NCBI GenBank assembly: GCA_964538435.1
Contig: CAZIDX010000004.1
Location: 769-64,768 of the forward strand
Length of the DNA: 64,000 bases
Source of the DNA: an uncultured Gammaproteobacteria bacterium
GTDB taxonomy: Bacteria > Patescibacteriota > Patescibacteriia > UBA9934 > GWF2-40-263
Direction: 5' to 3'
The notes below the pieces were generated by a model. It saw nothing but the letters and a program-made list of their open reading frames with translations, had not been told where the DNA came from and ran no database searches. Positions 2,718 to 10,064 of this stretch are shown one piece after another (the stretch's first letter is position 1; every line of letters starts with the position of its first letter). The position numbers and the translations under genes are program-made.

Positions 2718-2744
2718 ATGATCGGTTTTCTACTATTCAAAAAT

Positions 2745-2770
2745 CCGAGGCTTAACCTCGGACTTTATTA
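2745..2770. terminator. Bidirectional hairpin terminator (ccgagg-cttaa-cctcgg) between CDS 1707..2717 and tRNA-Arg
   Basis: 6-bp GC-rich stem with T-run on plus side and A-run (U-run on minus) on the other. Confidence 0.5.
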
Positions 2771-2775
2771 TTCGG

Positions 2776-2852
2776 TGGCGTACCTGGCAGGACTTGAACC
2801 TGCGACCTTTGGCTCCGCAAGCCAACGCTCTATCCAGCTGAGCTACAGGTAC
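2776..2852 (-). tRNA. tRNA-Arg, anticodon read as GCG (unusual)
   Basis: Reverse complement folds as canonical cloverleaf: 7-bp acceptor GTACCTG/CAGGTAC, D-arm GCTCAGCTGGATAGAGC (A20), anticodon stem TTGGC/GCCAA with loop TTGCGGA, T-arm GCAGGTTCAAGTCCTGC, discriminator G, CCA. Confidence 0.85.
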
Positions 2853-2857
2853 TCGGC

Positions 2858-3376
2858 TTACAGTTTATACAGTCTTCGCATGAGATCCGTCAAGTTTTCT
2901 TCGGTTCTGTCCATGTTTTCGTAGCAATAGTGCATGAGAGCCTCTCGGATTTCATTTGGATCATTGTCTTCTAGTGGAATGGAAAGAAGTGGTTGCCAAG
3001 GAGAGTGGAATTCGAAATAGAGGTACTTTACGTCTGGTGGATCATAGGCAATTGAGAAGTCCTGCAAGGCCTCGTAGTCGTAGTACATGTCACCCACAAC
3101 AACACCTGTGTTGGTAAGGATTACCGGGATGCGGTCAGGTGGCAGAAAAGTTGAGAGAAGGGTGATGATGCCGATCATGAGGATGATGACCGCAAACAGG
3201 AAGTTTGCTGTGGCAATGGAGTACATGATGAGGCCGACTCCAACAATTGCTCCTAATATATACCAATATTGTGAGCGTTTGTGGTGTGGGTATTCATCGA
3301 CTTCCCATTGAACAATTGGTGCACCAATCTCCATTGGGCTTATTTCTTGCTGTGCCATACGCGGGTATTTTAGCAT
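2858..3376 (-). CDS. Hypothetical membrane protein (two TM helices, bacterial PH-like)
   Basis: ORF 2858..3376; hydrophobic core YWYILGAIVGVGLIMYSIATANFLFAVIILMIGIITLL. Confidence 0.45.
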   Translation of the reverse strand: MLKYPRMAQQEISPMEIGAPIVQWEVDEYPHHKRSQYWYILGAIVGVGLIMYSIATANFLFAVIILMIGIITLLSTFLPPDRIPVILTNTGVVVGDMYYDYEALQDFSIAYDPPDVKYLYFEFHSPWQPLLSIPLEDNDPNEIREALMHYCYENMDRTEENLTDLMRRLYKL

Positions 3377-3433
3377 GTTTGGAAGGGGAATTGTAGGTTT
3401 TGTGAAGCTTGCACTCTTGACAAGTTCTCTGAT

Positions 3434-3463
3434 TTGAAGCAGTCAAGAATGCTACGATATTAT
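3434..3463 (+). promoter_or_regulatory. Putative sigma70 promoter (-35 ttgaag, -10 tattat) for the wHTH/Cas2-like gene
   Basis: Hexamers with 18-bp spacing ending ~30 bp before ATG 3495; repeat-A copy (3477-3494) lies between -10 and the start codon. Confidence 0.3.
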
Positions 3464-3476
3464 CATGGTCATTTAT

Positions 3477-3494
3477 ACGACGATCGACGGTTAT
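3477..3494. repeat. 18-bp direct repeat copy 1 (acgacgatcgacggttat), operator-like, abutting ATG of CDS 3495
   Basis: 16/18 identical to 4053..4070; contains CGATCG core. Confidence 0.5.
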
Positions 3495-4028
3495 ATGCCT
3501 AAGAAAGAATCAAGAAAACGTTCGATGAGTTTTTATTCAAGAGCTTCACAAATTTTGATGGGGATTTTTGAGTATGGAGATTTAGTAATTGAGAATATTC
3601 ATCAGCCAGGATTGGCTTTTCGATATGGGCTTGAGAACGCGATCGAGATTCGTGATTCTAAGGAAAAAGCTCTTCAAAAAAGAGAGCTTCGTCGGTTGGA
3701 AGAAAGGAGATTGGTGAAGATTGATAAAACTGCCAAGTTGTATGTTGTGCGTTTGAGTGATGATGGTTTATTGGAGGTTTTGAGGCAAAAAATTAACCAG
3801 GCATATCCATTACCAGACGGGAGGGATTGCATTGTGGTGTTTGATATTCCTGAGTCAAAAAGAAAGCTTAGGGATGGCTTGAGAAGGCTTTTAAAAGACG
3901 TCGGTTTTTTCTGTATTCAGAGAAGTGTTTGGATGTCTCCATTTGATGCTGGCGAGGCGTTCGCCGAGTTTTTTCGATTTGTTGGAAATGAAGACTGGGT
4001 TAGGGTATACACAGGGATAAGGCATTGA
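3495..4028 (+). CDS. Winged-helix (N-terminal) + Cas2/VapD-like (C-terminal) domain protein, PaaX-like architecture; putative regulator or toxin-like module
   Basis: ORF 3465..4028, ATG 3495 preferred; N-terminal 'RRLEERRLVKIDKTAKLYVVRLSDDG' helix+wing; C-terminal 'CIVVFDIPESKRKLRDGLRRLLKDVGFFCIQRSVWMSPFD' matches Cas2 beta1-alpha1-beta2 pattern. Confidence 0.5.
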   Translation: MPKKESRKRSMSFYSRASQILMGIFEYGDLVIENIHQPGLAFRYGLENAIEIRDSKEKALQKRELRRLEERRLVKIDKTAKLYVVRLSDDGLLEVLRQKINQAYPLPDGRDCIVVFDIPESKRKLRDGLRRLLKDVGFFCIQRSVWMSPFDAGEAFAEFFRFVGNEDWVRVYTGIRH

Positions 4029-4052
4029 GTTTTGAATTTTTGAGGCGCATAT

Positions 4053-4070
4053 GCGTCGATCGACGGTTAT
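4053..4070. repeat. 18-bp direct repeat copy 2 (gcgtcgatcgacggttat) containing 12-bp perfect palindrome cgtcgatcgacg, adjacent to 10-bp palindrome cgcatatgcg
   Basis: Direct comparison with 3477..3494. Confidence 0.5.
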
Positions 4071-4225
4071 GTGGTTGAGTTGGTTAATGTTTTGATTTAT
4101 GAAGATTAGTTGGTGAGGCTTTTGGTTTTGTGTTGACAGGGAGATGGGTGCAGGTTAATGTCTGAGAAATCGGAATTGGCATCCTGTGTGGGGTTCGGGA
4201 GTAACCCCGGGTGCGTGGAGTGGTT

Positions 4226-4417
4226 ATGGAACAGGTTGTGGTTTTCACGGCAGAAGACGAGAAGGTTGTCACGCTCGGTGAAAAGATCAGTGAGTGGCTC
4301 AGGACGCATCCGAATATCAGGATCACTGACAGGAAGCAGACCGAGTCGGCAGCCGGTAGTGAGTTGAGGAGAAGTCATTACGTGACGATCTCCATCTGGT
4401 ACATGGAGCCACTCTAG
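4226..4417 (+). CDS. Small hypothetical protein (63 aa)
   Basis: ORF 4211..4417; ATG 4226 (MEQVVVFTAEDEK...), purine-rich stretch upstream; followed by a strong terminator. Confidence 0.35.
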   Translation: MEQVVVFTAEDEKVVTLGEKISEWLRTHPNIRITDRKQTESAAGSELRRSHYVTISIWYMEPL

Positions 4418-4433
4418 GAAGAGTGATTCCACG

Positions 4434-4463
4434 AAGAGCTTTTGCTTCGGCAAAGCTCTTTTC
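4434..4463 (+). terminator. Intrinsic terminator (aagagcttt-loop-aaagctctt + TTTT) separating the small ORF from recG
   Basis: 9-bp perfect stem and T-run. Confidence 0.55.
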
Positions 4464-4489
4464 TAATTGATATGCTAAGATGCAATCGT

Positions 4490-6532
4490 ATGGCGATTCA
4501 CTTAACATCTTCTGTTTCTGAGCTTCCTGGAATCGGGGGAAAGGCTCTTGCGGCGCTTCGGTCGCTTGGGATTTCTTCTGTGCGAGACCTCTTATGGTAT
4601 GTGCCGTTTCGGTATGATGATTTTTCTGTTATTCGTGGAGCTGGTGAGGTGAAGGCTGGGGAGACTGTGACGGTGATTGGAGTAGTCCAATCGATTACGT
4701 CTCGGCCTGCGCAGAATCGTAAACTCAAGATTGTCGATGGGGTGATTGAGGATGAGACTGGGGAGCTTAAGGTGACTTGGTTTAATCAGGCCTATCTTGA
4801 GAAGACGCTTCCGCCTGGGACAAAGGTTGCGGTTGCTGGGCGCGTGGAAAATCGCTACGGGCTCTCGATGACCAGTCCGGTGATTGAGAAGAGAAAGGCA
4901 AGCGTGCACACTGGGCGCATTGTTCCAGTGTATGGCCTCACAGGTTCGCTTACGATGAGACGACTGCGCGATGCCATTCATGCTGCGCTCCCGGCTGCGA
5001 AGGAAATGACTGACTGGCTTCCTGAAGAGATTGCAAAGAAAGAAATTTTCCCGAGCTTGGCTGAGGCGATTCGGGCTGTGCATTTTCCTGAGACTCAGGC
5101 TGAGCTTACGTCTGCGATTGATCGCTTGAAGTTTGGTGAGCTGTTTTTGCATCAACTTATGTTTGCGCATGTGCGGCGTGAGCGAGAGAAAAAGTCTGCG
5201 CATTCGATTAGGCTTGATGAGGAGTTTTTGAAAGAGTTTGCTGCTGGTTTGCCGTTTGAGCTGACTAGCTCGCAGAAAAAAGCAATCTGGAGCACTGTGC
5301 AGGATACGGCTGGCAGTGAGCCAATGAATCGTTTGCTTGAGGGAGATGTTGGGTCTGGAAAAACAGTCGTGGCTGCGGCTGCGATTGCGAATGTGCTCAA
5401 GGGTGGGCTTACGGCCGTGTACCTTGCACCAACAGAGATTCTGGCCATGCAGCAGCATCAGGCGCTATCGAAGTTTTTGTCTGAGCCAGTGGGGCTTCTT
5501 ACACGCTCGCAGTCAAAGCTTGGGGAGGAAGAGATTGCAAAGACTGAGATCCTCGATCAGGCCAAGGGGCGATGCATTGTTGGAACGCATGCACTCCTTC
5601 AGGATAAAATTAAGATTGATGATGTCGCGCTTGTTGTGGTGGATGAGCAGCATCGTTTTGGTGTGGAGCAAAGGCATGCGCTACTTGAGACCGGAAACAA
5701 GCCATCGCCGCATCTTTTGTCAATGACAGCCACACCGATTCCGCGCTCACTATCACTTACAATTTTTGGAGACCTCGATCTGTCAGTACTCACTGAGATG
5801 CCGGTCGGGAGAAAGCCTGTAGCTACTGCGGTTGTTCCTCGAGCAGAGCAACAAGGAATGTGGACGCATGTGCTTGAGCAGGTCAAAGAGGATAGGCAAG
5901 TGTTTGTAGTGTGTCCGCTCATTGATCCATCAGACAAAATGGGAGCAAAGTCAGTAGCCGAGGTCGCACGCGAGCTTTCTAAAGGTCCTCTCAAGAGCCT
6001 CAAGATCGCGCAGCTTCATGGAAGGCTCAAAAGCGAGGAGAAGGAACAGGCGATCAAAAAGTTTCGCGATGGCAAGATCGACGTCCTTGTCTCTACAACG
6101 GTTGTTGAGGTAGGAGTGGATATTCCAAACGCGAGCGTGATGGTGATTGTTGGAGCAGATAGGTTTGGTTTGGCGCAACTGCATCAGCTTCGTGGGCGCG
6201 TTGGGCGTTCTGATATTCAGTCGTATTGTTATCTCTTGCCAGGGGAGGAGATGAGTGTGAATGGAGTGGAGAGGCTCAAAACCATGGAGGTAACCAACGA
6301 TGGGTTTAAGCTGGCAGAGAAAGATTTGGAGCTGCGTGGTCCAGGGAATATTTTTGGAAATGCGCAGTCAGGGTTTCCGGACTTTGTGCTGGCGACCGTG
6401 GCGGATGTGGAACTCATGTCCCGCGCGCGCGAGTGGTCAGGGAAGCTTCTTGGTGCTGATCCGGAGCTTGAGAGGCATCCTTTGATTAGGGATAGGGTAA
6501 AGAGGGAGTTTGATTCGGTTCATTTGGAATAA
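4490..6532 (+). CDS. recG: ATP-dependent DNA helicase RecG
   Basis: ORF 4442..6532; wedge domain, GSGKT Walker A, DEQHRFGV, TATPIPRSL, QLHGR, RGRVGR motifs; start 4472 or 4490. Confidence 0.9.
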   Translation: MAIHLTSSVSELPGIGGKALAALRSLGISSVRDLLWYVPFRYDDFSVIRGAGEVKAGETVTVIGVVQSITSRPAQNRKLKIVDGVIEDETGELKVTWFNQAYLEKTLPPGTKVAVAGRVENRYGLSMTSPVIEKRKASVHTGRIVPVYGLTGSLTMRRLRDAIHAALPAAKEMTDWLPEEIAKKEIFPSLAEAIRAVHFPETQAELTSAIDRLKFGELFLHQLMFAHVRREREKKSAHSIRLDEEFLKEFAAGLPFELTSSQKKAIWSTVQDTAGSEPMNRLLEGDVGSGKTVVAAAAIANVLKGGLTAVYLAPTEILAMQQHQALSKFLSEPVGLLTRSQSKLGEEEIAKTEILDQAKGRCIVGTHALLQDKIKIDDVALVVVDEQHRFGVEQRHALLETGNKPSPHLLSMTATPIPRSLSLTIFGDLDLSVLTEMPVGRKPVATAVVPRAEQQGMWTHVLEQVKEDRQVFVVCPLIDPSDKMGAKSVAEVARELSKGPLKSLKIAQLHGRLKSEEKEQAIKKFRDGKIDVLVSTTVVEVGVDIPNASVMVIVGADRFGLAQLHQLRGRVGRSDIQSYCYLLPGEEMSVNGVERLKTMEVTNDGFKLAEKDLELRGPGNIFGNAQSGFPDFVLATVADVELMSRAREWSGKLLGADPELERHPLIRDRVKREFDSVHLE

Positions 6533-6718
6533 GTTTCGCTTTCGCTCGAATTTTTCTACGGGAGCTTGGGGCGGCCACGAGGTCGTAGGTTAAAAACTCG
6601 CTGCAGATGTTTTTAACCTACGACCTCGAACGGCCGTTTGGCGTCCTGGGCCACTGGGTAGGGTGGTGTTACGACGCTTCGGCACATCGAGTGCCTCGCG
6701 TCGTCATCTTCATTGGGT
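6533..6718 (+). repeat. Family-1 structured interspersed repeat, copy 1 (two conserved hairpins: 6579-6627 and 6671-6704)
   Basis: Aligned by eye with 39821-40012 and 51311-51515; shared core 'ggggcggccacgaggtcgtaggttaaaaa...tttttaacctacgacctcgaacggccgtttggcgtcctgggcc'. Confidence 0.7.
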
Positions 6719-6730
6719 TCTGAGAAATGA

Positions 6731-6759
6731 TTGACACATAGTCCCAATAGGGCTATTCT
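6731..6759 (+). promoter_or_regulatory. sigma70-like promoter (-35 ttgaca, 17-bp spacer, -10 tattct) for NADAR gene
   Basis: Consensus -35, good spacing, GGAGGA RBS at 6768-6773. Confidence 0.45.
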
Positions 6760-6777
6760 TTTTTTCTGGAGGATGAA

Positions 6778-7281
6778 ATGCCGATCGAGATTCCTGGTGC
6801 GATTACTTCTTTTCGAGGAAGCTACCGGTTCCTCTCCAACTTCTACGGGCACAAGCCTGAGCACATCAAGTTCACTGTGGTGGTGGATGGGGTGGAGTTT
6901 CACACGAGTGAACATGGGTTCATGGCTTCCAAGACGACTGACTTGGAGACCAGGCGACTGATCCAGGCTATGCCTGGTGCGATGCAGGCCAAGATGTACT
7001 GGCATGATGAGAGCAAACAGCACCTGCTCCGCGAGGACTGGGATGAGATCAGGCTCTCGACCATGTTGGACATGCTTCGTCAGAAGTTTGCTCATCCGAA
7101 GCTTCAGCAGATGCTGCTTGACACAGGTAACGTGATCTTGATCGAGGGCAACAACTGGGGGGATACGTTCTTCGGTGTCGATGAGGAGACTGGAGAAGGG
7201 GAGAGCTGGCTTGGGCGTTTGCTCATGATGGTTCGCACTGAGCGCGCTCTGGAGGAGTATCTCAAACGGGTCGCTGCGTAG
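6778..7281 (+). CDS. NADAR / YbiA-like (DUF1768) N-glycosidase family protein
   Basis: Motifs FLSNFY, EFHTSEHGFMASK, NNWGDTFFG; GC content visibly higher than flanks. Confidence 0.8.
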   Translation: MPIEIPGAITSFRGSYRFLSNFYGHKPEHIKFTVVVDGVEFHTSEHGFMASKTTDLETRRLIQAMPGAMQAKMYWHDESKQHLLREDWDEIRLSTMLDMLRQKFAHPKLQQMLLDTGNVILIEGNNWGDTFFGVDEETGEGESWLGRLLMMVRTERALEEYLKRVAA

Positions 7282-7340: not shown

Positions 7341-7388
7341 AAAAAAGTTTGCTAAGTTTAGTTAATAAAAATGTTGTTGGTTTATAAC

Positions 7389-7416
7389 AAAAAACACGTA
7401 TTTACGTGTCTTTTTT
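7389..7416. terminator. Bidirectional terminator (A6-acacgt-attt-acgtgt-T6) downstream of radA
   Basis: Hairpin flanked by A-run and T-run; radA stop at 7422. Confidence 0.55.
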
Positions 7417-7421
7417 GTTTC

Positions 7422-8738
7422 TTAGAGATCTTTGATGTTTGAAATCCTTCTCAGTTCGATGTTGTCTGTTTTTACTTTGCTCTTTGCTGGGATTGCTGCT
7501 GCTGTGATTCCTAGTCTTGAGGTTTCTACTAGTCTTTTTTGTGTGAGTGGGGCTGAGCGCACTTCTCCTCCTAGGCCTACTTCTCCGATGTAGACAGTTG
7601 GGGTTTGGTCGATCTTGTTTGCAAACGCACTCTTGATAGCTGCGCAGATTGCTAGGTCTGCTGCTGGTTCTGAGAGTTTCATGCCTCCGATCACGTTGAG
7701 ATAGACATCTTTGTCTGACAGTTTGAGGTTGGCTCGTTTGGAAAGAATTGCAGTGAGCATTTGCAAACGGTTTTGATCAAATCCGGATGCGCGGCGGATG
7801 GGGGTTCCGTATGAGCTAGTTTCAACAAGCGCTTGGACCTCGACAAGGAATACACGTGAGCCTTCCATGGTTGCTGCGATGACTGAGCCTGGGGTGGCAG
7901 CGCGCTCTTCTAGAAATCGGGCAGAAGGGTTCTCGACAGGGATCAGGCCTTTTTCTGTCATCTCGAACACACCGATTTCGTCTGTGGCTCCAAAGCGATT
8001 CTTTTTGCTGCGGAGCATGCGGTAGGCATGCACAGGATCTCCTTCGATTTCGATAACAACGTCTACGAGGTGCTCGAGTGTCTTTGGTCCGGCAATAGAA
8101 CCGTCTTTTGTGACTTGGCCTACGAGCAGGATTGAGACTCCTGTGCGTTTTGCAACCTCCATGAGTAGAGCGGTTGCATAGCGGACAAGGGTGGGGGAGC
8201 CGGCAGTGGAGTCGAGTTCGTCTGAGGTGATTGTTTGTACGGAGTCAATAATCGCGAGGGCAGGCTTCTCTTTTTCAATTGTTGCTGCAAGAGTCTCGAT
8301 TGGGAGAGGTTCGAGCACATGAACATGGTCGGTTGGTTTTTCAAGTCGTGCAAAACGTGCGGTGAGCTGACCTGGGGATTCTTCTCCTGAAATGTAGAGC
8401 ACGGTCTCCTTGAGTGATCCAGCGATCGCAGCGACCATGGTGGATTTTCCGATTCCTGGTTCTCCTGAGATGAGGATGAGTGAGCCTTTTACAATTCCAC
8501 CTCCGAGTACACGGTCGGTTTCAGTATCGCCGGTGGGGGTGCGTTTGTGCTCATTCTGCTCAGCAATCTCTTTGAGAGGTTGGCTTTTTGAGGCTGCGGC
8601 AGTGCGCGCAGTTTTAAGAGACGAGCTTTTTTTGCTCGTCCTCCCTTGTTCTTCAGTTAGAGTGCCCCATTTGTCGCATACAAGGCATTTGCCTGCCCAT
8701 TTGGGGGATTGTGCGTCACAGTTTGAACAGATATACAT
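7422..8738 (-). CDS. radA: DNA repair protein RadA/Sms
   Basis: N-terminal C4 zinc ribbon (CSNCDAQSPKWAGKCLVC), GEPGIGKST Walker A, KNRFG motif, Lon-like C-terminus. Confidence 0.9.
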   Translation of the reverse strand: MYICSNCDAQSPKWAGKCLVCDKWGTLTEEQGRTSKKSSSLKTARTAAASKSQPLKEIAEQNEHKRTPTGDTETDRVLGGGIVKGSLILISGEPGIGKSTMVAAIAGSLKETVLYISGEESPGQLTARFARLEKPTDHVHVLEPLPIETLAATIEKEKPALAIIDSVQTITSDELDSTAGSPTLVRYATALLMEVAKRTGVSILLVGQVTKDGSIAGPKTLEHLVDVVIEIEGDPVHAYRMLRSKKNRFGATDEIGVFEMTEKGLIPVENPSARFLEERAATPGSVIAATMEGSRVFLVEVQALVETSSYGTPIRRASGFDQNRLQMLTAILSKRANLKLSDKDVYLNVIGGMKLSEPAADLAICAAIKSAFANKIDQTPTVYIGEVGLGGEVRSAPLTQKRLVETSRLGITAAAIPAKSKVKTDNIELRRISNIKDL

Positions 8739-8741
8739 AGA

Positions 8742-10064
8742 TTATCCTCCTGAGTCAGTACAGTATTTTAAGTAGATTTCAGCGGCTTTTGCTGCATAGT
8801 GAGCGGCTTGTGCTCCAGATCCGTTGTAGGCACACATGGCCATAGCAAGGTCGCCAGTTCGATCAAGTCGTTTTTTTACAAATGTTGCTTGAGCTCTGAG
8901 GGTGTTGCTAATACCTCCCCAGTTTGTTCCACCAGTTGAGAGTTTAGTGTCAAAGTACTCTGCACATGAGTCTAGTGCGACTTGGCAAGTCCAGCATACA
9001 GTGGTGTTACAATCTGGAAATTTTGTTGTGTCAGGCGGCCAGGTTGGGTCATAGGATTCATTGCAGTGCGCAGCAACTTGTTCTCCTCGTGTGTGGTCTC
9101 TGGACACTGTACGCACGCAACATTCTTGTCCAAGGGTTGATTCAAAAGATGTTGGCATGAACTGCGCAATCCCAATTTCCCCACATGGTCCACGCTGCGA
9201 GGAATCGTAGTCAATTGTTCCGCTTGTTTCAATCTGTAGATGAGTTGCAAGCTGGAAACGATCAGCTCCTGTTTCGTCTGCAATAGAGTTAACGACGGCG
9301 GTAAGCTCATCAGTCCAACCAGAAGGTTTTTTTAAAACAGTTGCAGAGCAGGCTTTGACCATCCCTTCGACTCCTTCACAGTTTTCAAGTGAGAATGATG
9401 TAAGCGCATCTTCTGCAATGTTGTCTAACGAGATTGTTCGAAGGCGGACAAGTTCGGGGTTCACTGTCCAAAGAATGAGCCAAGTGCTTGAAAGTAGGAT
9501 AAGGCCAATGACAGCGTTTTTGATGCGCTCCTTTGCTTTTGATGTATCTCCATATCCGCCAGCTGCAGCATACTGAAATCCTCCAATCATGACCATGACG
9601 ATTGCAGCAATGGTGGCTATTCCCAAAATGTACTTATAAGCTCCTGCGATGTAGGCACCCAAGAAGGCGATGTGCAGCACCTTACCATCGACCTCAATGG
9701 CATCTGACAGGTCTATGCCTGGGATTTCAACACTGAGGAGCGGGGTGATGGTTTGTGTGCTGTTGTTAGATACAGCTCCTGTGTTTCCAGGTGCGGTTGA
9801 GTAGCCAGAGTTTGTGCACGTTGTCTTACAATCCATGATGTGGCTTGTGCCATCTGGGCACGAGCAGCCAGCATCAGAGAGAATAGTGGCGCCGCTGTCT
9901 CCGCAGTCTGAAATACATTCGTCCGTTGCATCAACTGAGTGCGCAATATTATCTGAGTCATAACAAGTACAACCTCCAGCAGCAAGAGTGGTCAATGGGA
10001 AAAGGGCACTCAGTGTGAGTGTGGAAAGTGCTAGGAGGATTGAAATTCGTTTTGTTAGTTGCAT
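8742..10064 (-). CDS. Modular exported protein: signal peptide + Cys-rich domain + conserved membrane-hairpin module + lytic transglycosylase (SLT-like) domain
   Basis: Signal peptide; module '...IPGIDLSD...FLGAYIAGAYKYILGIATIAAIVMVMIGGFQYAAAGGYGDTSKAKERIKNAVIGLILLSSTWLILWTVNPELVRL'; SLT-like 'ETSGTIDYDSSQRGPCGEIGIAQFMPTSF'. Confidence 0.6.
   Translation of the reverse strand: MQLTKRISILLALSTLTLSALFPLTTLAAGGCTCYDSDNIAHSVDATDECISDCGDSGATILSDAGCSCPDGTSHIMDCKTTCTNSGYSTAPGNTGAVSNNSTQTITPLLSVEIPGIDLSDAIEVDGKVLHIAFLGAYIAGAYKYILGIATIAAIVMVMIGGFQYAAAGGYGDTSKAKERIKNAVIGLILLSSTWLILWTVNPELVRLRTISLDNIAEDALTSFSLENCEGVEGMVKACSATVLKKPSGWTDELTAVVNSIADETGADRFQLATHLQIETSGTIDYDSSQRGPCGEIGIAQFMPTSFESTLGQECCVRTVSRDHTRGEQVAAHCNESYDPTWPPDTTKFPDCNTTVCWTCQVALDSCAEYFDTKLSTGGTNWGGISNTLRAQATFVKKRLDRTGDLAMAMCAYNGSGAQAAHYAAKAAEIYLKYCTDSGG

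Follow-up and report, generated by a model that had tools for sequence, protein, structure and literature searches.

A candidate family of truncated PaaX-like regulators with a Cas2-like domain, bracketed by co-varying palindromic sites in Patescibacteria

PaaX is known as the phenylacetyl-CoA-responsive repressor of Escherichia coli and Pseudomonas (structures 8a39, 3l09 and 3kfw). The E. coli operator is a 39-bp element, TGATTC-N27-GAATCA, and at its own promoter, Px, PaaX acts as a repressor that keeps RNA polymerase out (PMC9493321). Here we analyze a PaaX-like gene, denoted mini-PaaX, located at 3495-4028 on the plus strand of a 64,000-nt stretch of contig CAZIDX010000004.1 (assembly GCA_964538435.1, uncultured Gammaproteobacteria bacterium, placed in Patescibacteriota by GTDB), and the two palindromic sites, O1 and O2, which enclose it; the whole stretch is referred to as the window. 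The encoded protein of 177 residues resembles PaaX in that an N-terminal winged helix is followed by a Cas2-like dimerisation domain, as seen in the PaaX_M domain and the top fold matches. The sites of the family span 38-50 bp with promoter boxes in the upstream copy; a span of 38-46 bp, together with the placement at the promoter, would match the wide inverted repeat of the ~39-bp PaaX operator, while the sites of the window are shorter. In contrast with PaaX, mini-PaaX is ~130 residues shorter, lacks PaaX_C and any detected N-terminal PaaX profile, and has no paa genes among its neighbours. Its site is wholly palindromic, including a conserved 6-bp centre, and is duplicated on both sides of the gene, and the family is confined to Patescibacteria-type genomes among the matches listed.

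The C-terminal half of mini-PaaX also invites comparison with Cas2. Cas2 makes non-specific contacts with the DNA backbone in the Cas1-Cas2 integrase, RNase activity is reported for Cas2 and VapD homologues, and the Cas2/VapD fold is used by some toxins. Mini-PaaX shares the ferredoxin-like fold with Cas2, together with a hydrophobic strand ending in Asp, a basic helix and the motif Q-x-S-V-F/W; unlike Cas2, mini-PaaX joins this domain to a winged helix, seems to use it to recognise one particular hexamer and stands without cas1, a CRISPR array or another cas gene. No array was found in the 64-kb window, PADLOC identified no cas1 or other cas gene among the six proteins nearest the gene, and no cas-like neighbour recurred among 469 neighbours of family members, in agreement with the view of a first-pass annotation of this DNA that the locus is not a CRISPR remnant. 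With respect to site arrangement, two operator copies separated by several hundred bp, with one located at the promoter, recall the looping systems of Gal, Lac, Deo and lambda CI, but the second mini-PaaX site lies past the gene's own stop codon, the pair encloses the regulator, helical phasing is absent, and looping would be hypothetical. A ~0.6-0.7 kb gene lying between palindromes that co-evolve with a ferredoxin-like-fold protein is likewise a feature of REP/RAYT (repetitive extragenic palindromes and their associated tyrosine transposases) and IS200/IS605 elements, where the flanking palindromes are lineage-specific and are recognised by the encoded protein. In contrast with these, mini-PaaX has neither an HUH motif nor an invariant or catalytic Tyr in an alignment of 17 sequences, occurs as a single copy in the window with no palindrome dispersal seen in the 64 kb or in most flanks of relatives, and has sites whose symmetry runs through the centre and whose upstream copy holds a promoter. 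It also differs from VapD-type type II toxin-antitoxin modules in having no conserved adjacent partner, the neighbours falling into 290 families.

Relatives were collected by a word search, which returned 17 proteins, and the contigs of the nearest ones were inspected. While scanning GTDB genomes with the single sequence gave no relative, alignment-based scans did, and added 80 metagenome loci and 79 GTDB-genome loci, with at least about 550 relatives confirmed. The proteins are nearly all 170-190 residues long and are labelled Cas2 or PaaX by automatic pipelines. Among the matches listed, the GTDB records are almost all metagenome-assembled genomes (MAGs) of Patescibacteria, also called the candidate phyla radiation (CPR), including Uhrbacteria, Staskawiczbacteria, Saccharibacteria, Daviesbacteria, Yonathbacteria and others.

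The domain composition of the window protein was consistent between profile and structure searches. The Pfam model PF20803, PaaX_M ('PaaX central Cas2-like domain'), matched residues 108-173 with an E-value of 3.3e-15 (56.4 bits, cut-off 24) and was found in 17/17 relatives. The Pfam CRISPR_Cas2 match was weak (E 3.1e-4) and its 21.3 bits lay under the gathering score of 23.8, while TIGR01573 cas2 of NCBIfam exceeded its cut-off (29.2 vs 24.5 bits) but covered 39 residues only (112-150), the same residues to which the PADLOC Cas2 models were limited. PaaX_C, the effector domain, had no match in the window protein or the 17 relatives, and the protein ends at residue 177 right after the Cas2-like fold. 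For the N-terminal part, another winged helix-turn-helix profile, DUF6293_C, matched 5 of the 17 relatives (best E 1.5e-6). In an AF2 (AlphaFold2) model built from the alignment of 17 relatives (mean predicted local distance difference test score, pLDDT, 81.5), residues 16-101 formed a helix, a strand, a low-confidence loop, a long helix, a beta-hairpin and a helix, resembling a winged helix, and residues 110-175 formed the beta-alpha-beta-beta-alpha-beta arrangement of a ferredoxin fold. The best Foldseek matches in the Protein Data Bank (PDB) were E. coli PaaX (8a39), Rv0674 (3kfw), Cas2 (5zyf) and 3l09, with weak E-values and high probabilities; PDB chains found by sequence profile were Cas2 only. 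We divide the protein into a winged-helix-like part (residues 1-107, 3495-3815) and a Cas2-like ferredoxin fold (residues 108-177, 3816-4025). Residues F116, D117, I118, P119, E120, R123, R126, L133, Q142, S144 and V145 are invariant in the 17-sequence alignment, D117 being the Asp at the catalytic position of Cas2; the codons of D117, E120 and R143 lie at 3843-3845, 3852-3854 and 3921-3923 on the plus strand. The start at 3495 agrees with the relatives, which align from this ATG, and with the ATATG around the start, which is invariant in five upstream regions, while an alternative in-frame ATG at 3465 is present in the window sequence only. Based on these features, the gene probably encodes a truncated PaaX-type protein, predicted to bind DNA through a winged helix and a Cas2-like dimerisation domain and to lack the PaaX_C effector domain.

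Both sides of the gene carry copies of one repeat. Ungapped extension aligned 3474-3497 with 4050-4073 at 21/24 identical positions, and the 20-mer pattern CGWCGATCGACGGTTATRTG was located at 3478-3497 and 4054-4073, where 100 shuffles gave an expectation of 0 matches; elsewhere in the 64 kb it had no match except a 3-mismatch one on the minus strand at 4046-4065, which overlaps the downstream copy. The dyad of the upstream site O1 (3466-3503) is centred between 3483 and 3484, with CGATCG as its central hexamer at 3481-3486. Its core repeat, 3474-3497, takes in the start codon (ATG 3495-3497), and its 18-nt arms, compared by hand, are symmetric at 12/18 positions. The downstream site O2 (4042-4077) begins 14 nt past the stop codon, with the dyad centre between 4059 and 4060, CGATCG at 4057-4062 and the core repeat at 4050-4073. 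Within O2, the perfect 12-bp palindrome CGTCGATCGACG (4054-4065) is abutted by CGCATATGCG (4045-4054), which is part of the left arm, and the counterpart of O2 in the relative L004 is a perfect palindrome of 32-34 nt. The first-pass annotation had described a PaaX-type protein bracketed by an 18-bp direct repeat, with a 12-bp palindrome next to a second one in the downstream copy. The architecture is borne out by the PaaX_M match in the window protein and all relatives, the model and the Foldseek matches, and both palindromes were confirmed; the two repeat copies are present as well, although their coordinates had been off by about one base. The repeat is not a widespread genomic motif, given two sites only in 64 kb, and its proposed operator-like nature is strengthened by the family-wide comparisons below.

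The bracket recurs across the family. In every near relative inspected, one repeat ends at the start codon and the other begins at or just after the stop codon, with a lineage-specific sequence: GGCACGATCGGTCC in L001, GGTCCGATCGGCAC in L003, where the pair is inverted, and AACGGCCGT in L006. When start and stop regions of the metagenome loci were compared, the best match exceeded all 60 shuffles in 55 of the 75 testable loci, and this was replicated in the GTDB loci. A significant site pair was present in 82/128 unique loci from Patescibacteria/CPR MAGs and metagenomes, as against 3/327 neighbouring control genes under the same test, and the three positive controls are probably genes with a third copy on one side and a member of the pair on the other. 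Site cores appeared elsewhere in the flanks in 3/53 loci only. The sites are near-perfect loopless palindromes of 20-50 bp with lineage-specific arms, and the 6-bp centres comprised CGATCG, AAGCTT, CGGCCG, CTATAG, CGTACG, AACGTT and CACGTG. The downstream site starts at a median distance of 7 nt past the stop codon (interquartile range (IQR) 0-19.5), while the gap to the next co-directional gene is much more variable (median 57, IQR 27-185), and the site is present with the next gene co-directional (47 loci) or convergent (20 loci). Being anchored to the stop codon regardless of the orientation of the neighbour, the downstream site therefore belongs to the regulator unit and not to the neighbour. 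A role of the downstream copy as the promoter of the next gene was considered and rejected, since its -10-likeness is independent of the orientation of the next gene, which is convergent in 20/67 loci.

To relate protein and site, we aligned 96 unique family proteins and calculated mutual information between each column and individual positions of the cognate site. Averaged per domain, mutual information showed no localisation, and a signal appeared only with single operator positions. For the three central arm positions, the top columns were in the Cas2-like domain (143, 163, 140, 132, 131, 120 and 164), and for arm positions 4-8 they were in the N-terminal part (55, 57, 83, 84, 23 and 102). 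The F-D-I-P-E motif that follows strand 1 ends with residue 120, and residue 143 comes directly after the invariant Gln of Q-x-S-V-W at the turn between strands 2 and 3. Counted without formal phylogenetic correction, the hexamer CGATCG went with Glu at 120 and Lys or Arg at 143 in 45/47 loci, CTATAG with Glu and Lys in 5/5, CGTACG with Glu and Arg in 3/3, CGGCCG with Glu and Gln in 12/15 (the other three having Ala or Asn at 143), AAGCTT with Gln and Gln in 13/16, AACGTT with Arg or Lys and Gln in 2/2, and CACGTG with Ala and Gln in one locus. The window protein, with FDIPE and QRSVW, carries CGATCG in both sites and matches the rule of E120 with K/R143. At least six nearest-neighbour contrasts switch the centre between AT and GC along with residue 143 between K/R and Q/N, namely L003/L006 (63% identical, in the clade of the window), L121/L030 (66%), L138/L073 (61%), L036/L124, L098/L093 and L147/L120. 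A neighbour-joining tree gives nine changes of the site character and seven of the residue character; in the sequences compared, the central AT/GC switch arose several times independently, and fewer independent events stand behind the association of residue 120. The turn between strands 2 and 3 shares one edge of the sheet with the end of strand 1 in a ferredoxin fold, and in Cas2 dimers the strand-1 Asp is near the two-fold axis. Read most simply, the dyad would be occupied by a Cas2-like dimer that recognises the central hexamer, and the arms would be contacted by the winged helices. We found no description of the bracket or of the residue-site covariation in the searchable literature, of which coverage was incomplete.

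The form in which the sites are recognised can be judged from their symmetry. Of 80 strong palindromes, 76 are symmetric through the centre, the central four bases being self-complementary, and arm mismatches showed no excess of G.T over A.C (29 v 24). Asymmetric sites are paired directly in 22 loci and inverted in 9, and O1 treated as RNA folded no better than shuffles (z 0.10). Taken together, the central symmetry, the lack of wobble bias, the mixed orientation and the unfolded O1 RNA point to double-stranded DNA that would be recognised by a symmetric dimer. When sites were aligned by their centres, a -35-like TTGAAA or TTGACG was seen immediately to the left of the dyad axis, and arm positions 16-21 held a -10-like box; TATAAT occurred in exact form in 7/36 right arms of upstream copies, chiefly at position 16, vs 2/45 right arms of downstream copies. 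The promoter of the gene therefore falls within the upstream copy in most clades, and since the -10 box is at the right end of the palindrome there, the palindrome is not in the mRNA. In the clade of the window, the sites are shorter than the 38-50 bp sites of the family, and O1 follows a conserved -10-like box (TACGAT/TATTAT, 3453-3463) and reaches to the start codon, which it includes. The corresponding candidate promoter is a weak sigma-70-like TTGAAG-N18-TATTAT at 3434-3463 on the plus strand (9/12 matches).

We favour, with moderate confidence, a model in which an autoregulated mini-PaaX dimer binds both sites as double-stranded DNA, its Cas2-like dimer reading the dyad centre. A homodimer would occupy a dyad-symmetric site that is present twice, as O1 and O2. 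O1 is placed at the start of the gene's own transcription unit, running in the window clade from just past the -10-like box as far as the start codon and in most other clades across both the -35 and the -10, and binding there would repress the gene's own expression. The Cas2-like dimer on the dyad axis is predicted to read the hexamer via residue 120 in the F-D-I-P-E loop and residue 143 in the Q-x-S-V-W turn, with the arms contacted by the winged helices. O2, past the stop codon, would serve as a second, auxiliary site, acting as a roadblock or terminator aid or through cooperative binding with O1; a possible function as an element boundary may also be considered. As judged from sequence comparison, the object would then be a CPR-wide family of truncated PaaX-like regulators enclosed by two co-evolving dyad sites. 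Patescibacteria have tiny genomes and, to our knowledge, almost no characterised transcription factors. If the model holds, this would be one of the first regulator families of the CPR for which operators are predicted and specificity can be read from a rule, linking residues 120 and 143 to the hexamer. The Cas2 fold would act as a sequence-specific DNA reader, so that annotations as 'Cas2-like' or 'PaaX-like' would need re-reading, and the many distinct protein-site pairs would be natural orthogonal repressor-operator parts.

Several observations weigh against this model. The PaaX N-terminal domain PF07848 had no match at E<=1 in the window protein and none in the 17 relatives, and residues 36-50 of the AF2 model are of low confidence. 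Binding, repression, dimer geometry and the role of O2 are features that we infer from the patterns above, and the residue-hexamer counts are the uncorrected ones. A significant pair is absent in 46/128 loci, and the anchoring of the downstream site to the stop codon is left unexplained by a binding dimer. The distance between the sites (median 613 bp) shows no helical phasing. In the window, no additional site of the O1/O2 type was found that would extend the role of the protein beyond self-regulation. Promoter-like matches in the region were no more numerous than in shuffles, so the element at 3434-3463 is a candidate only; the earlier placement of the first copy between a -10 and the start codon stands as far as its position 3' of a -10-like box is concerned, and not as regards a promoter count above chance. 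Nor does a binding dimer account for the way in which the two copies differ, a change in one arm tending to be matched in the other arm of that copy, with 69 compensated vs 53 uncompensated changes where ~4 compensated ones would be expected with independent arms, the outer positions being partly ascertained by pairing. Such symmetric changes within a copy suggest selection for hairpin or cruciform extrusion, or quasi-palindrome correction by template switching. Quasi-palindrome correction during replication is a known mutational process. The second site at the stop codon and the maintenance of the dyad within each site can now be posed as precise questions.

Among the alternatives, we considered a selfish or mobile cassette that moves as a block, in which the palindromes serve for cleavage or recombination and the Cas2-like domain acts as an active metal-dependent nuclease cutting at their centre, in the manner of a homodimeric restriction enzyme or a hairpin-forming resolvase. 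Tightly delimited by the stop-anchored downstream site, the unit is self-contained, has no conserved partner gene, and keeps its dyad symmetry in each copy; the Asp invariant in the 17 sequences also lies close to the hexamer-tracking residues 120 and 143. Neighbours are always shared at >=95% protein identity and in 56/278 pairs at 60-80% identity, and several MAGs carry two paralogues with different palindromes. This loss of shared neighbours and the paralogues therefore show that duplication or relocation of the unit was frequent over evolutionary time. However, both flanks are syntenic between the window and its 77%-identical relative, and also between L001 and L003. Neither identical elements in multiple copies nor transposase or recombinase motifs were found, target sites were not duplicated outside the palindromes, and the phage and plasmid collections held no copy. 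The promoter boxes in the upstream copy and the occurrence of both direct and inverted pairings are likewise not in favour of such a cassette, which we regard as unlikely.

Control at the RNA level would instead treat the palindromes as mRNA hairpins in the 5' leader and at the 3' end, which the Cas2 domain, resembling an RNA-recognition motif, binds or cleaves to tune translation or stability. This would fit the RNase activity of Cas2 and VapD homologues, the start codon within the upstream copy of the window clade and the compensated arm changes. The downstream copy is in the 3' untranslated region and folds, moderately in the window (-14 kcal/mol, z -2.4) and more strongly in L004 (-28.7, z -7.4). 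However, self-complementarity of the central four bases is not needed for a hairpin loop, no G.U-type bias of the sense strand is seen, and the orientation of asymmetric sites is not fixed. The upstream palindrome is moreover outside the mRNA in most clades, and that of the window does not fold. We consider this explanation distinctly unlikely, in favour of the double-stranded operator.

A further reading regards the Cas2-like domain as more than a dimerisation module, namely a sequence-reading and possibly catalytic head for long palindromes, with the palindrome-gene-palindrome units being autonomous elements that cut, resolve or copy at the site centres. We hold it to be quite improbable; if true, it would provide a free-living Cas2 relative paired with palindromic repeats outside CRISPR and would bear on the origin of the association of Cas2 with repeats.

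It is very improbable that the palindromes are only bidirectional terminators or insulators to which the protein is indifferent. They are intergenic, following the upstream gene and the gene's own stop, some of them have A/T runs (L023, L028 and L053), and a convergent neighbour downstream, as in the 20/67 loci above, would suit such a role. However, it would leave unexplained the lineage-specific sequence shared within each locus, the confinement to one gene family and the covariation of residues with the centre, and in the window O2 has no U-run and O1 no stable stem.

The first-pass annotation had favoured a toxin-antitoxin or defence cassette, formed by the Cas2/VapD-like protein and a 63-codon open reading frame (ORF) at 4226-4417 (plus strand) with shared operators. 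The ORF and its own terminator exist as described, the latter as a hairpin with a T-run at 4433-4461 (-14.2 kcal/mol, z -2.9). The word-indexed database matched the ORF to itself only, while an exhaustive HMMER search found four proteins of 62-68 residues with 35-43% identity, and it is probably a real, rare small gene; its family shows the pattern F..D......IN.WL..NP.I.I.DR.Q..S....T..I.Y and has no Pfam match. However, the ORF is within a lineage-specific intergenic insertion at 4078-4470, ~300 nt longer than the equivalent in L004 and outside the regulator unit, and the insertion has a weak promoter-like TTGACA-N17-TAATGT of its own at 4133-4161 on the plus strand, with O2 ~60 nt upstream of this box. 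In the closest relative L004/L005, the regulator is 77% identical, and the same divergent gene upstream and the same recG downstream are present, but the insertion and the ORF are absent, as is the ORF from all other related loci examined. Family-wide, the 469 neighbours fall into 290 families, the largest in 10 loci, and PADLOC on the six nearest proteins returned nothing beyond the Cas2-domain matches of mini-PaaX itself. Despite the use of the fold by toxins, the absence of the ORF from relatives, the lack of a conserved partner and the PADLOC result therefore lead us to reject the two-gene cassette, to which we give next to no credence.

With regard to the surroundings of the gene, the next conserved gene downstream is recG (4490-6532, plus strand), which in L004 directly follows mini-PaaX and is also a neighbour in L009 and L091. 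Housekeeping genes, including several for DNA repair, make up the identified neighbours, with no paa gene among them. In several Uhrbacteria-type genomes (L088, and also L100, L092, L094, L112 and L018), the regulator is between uvrA and uvrC, with a third palindrome between uvrB and uvrA. The order in L088 is uvrB, site, uvrA, site, regulator, site and uvrC, the third copy at 7237-7270 lying between uvrB (5170-7167) and uvrA (7357-9867). The recurrent DNA-repair neighbours in the wider clade of the window may hint at a regulon. A LexA-like role based on the uvrA, uvrC and recG neighbours was not adopted, because the association is confined to a single clade and because regulons of LexA are described in Patescibacteria, according to the citation of Sanchez-Osuna et al. 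2017 in PMC8565304. Exact or near-exact extra palindromes away from the regulator occur in L124 (3737 and 3910), L162 (1899), L140 (10639) and L142 (10688), for instance upstream of a KsgA/RsmA-like gene in L124, and these copies are possible further targets.

Upstream of the window gene, a TTGACA box at 3417-3422 (plus strand), ~75 nt from the start codon, is inside a conserved block, GCACTCTTGACA (3410-3422 in the window, also in L004 and L006), and its role is uncertain. It is 30 nt from the conserved -10-like TACGAT (3453-3458) and is kept in the upstream alignments of the window, L004 and L006; this distance exceeds the standard sigma-70 spacer, and the block may belong to the divergent membrane-protein gene (2858-3376, minus strand, 172 residues) or to a second promoter. 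Directly 3' of this divergent gene is a tRNA-Arg(GCG) at 2776-2852 on the minus strand, overlapped by a 68-codon ORF (2718-2924, plus strand) that is probably spurious. On the other side, at 2964-4079, L004 has a Fic-domain gene between recG and a NADAR-domain gene, where the window has only ~245 nt (6533-6777), so that these close relatives differ in the presence of a gene. In L001 (4838-5161) and L003 (1543-1866), an unannotated gene of 107 residues opens a V-type ATPase operon (subunit I, c-ring and AC39-like) after the unit. Finally, L150 (DAOPTN010000028.1), labelled 'Candidatus Pacearchaeota archaeon', has palindromes identical to those of the bacterial metagenome loci L057 and L064, and many family loci are from MAGs titled 'uncultured Gammaproteobacteria' (binchicken assemblies); L150 and these contigs are probably mis-binned or mislabelled CPR.

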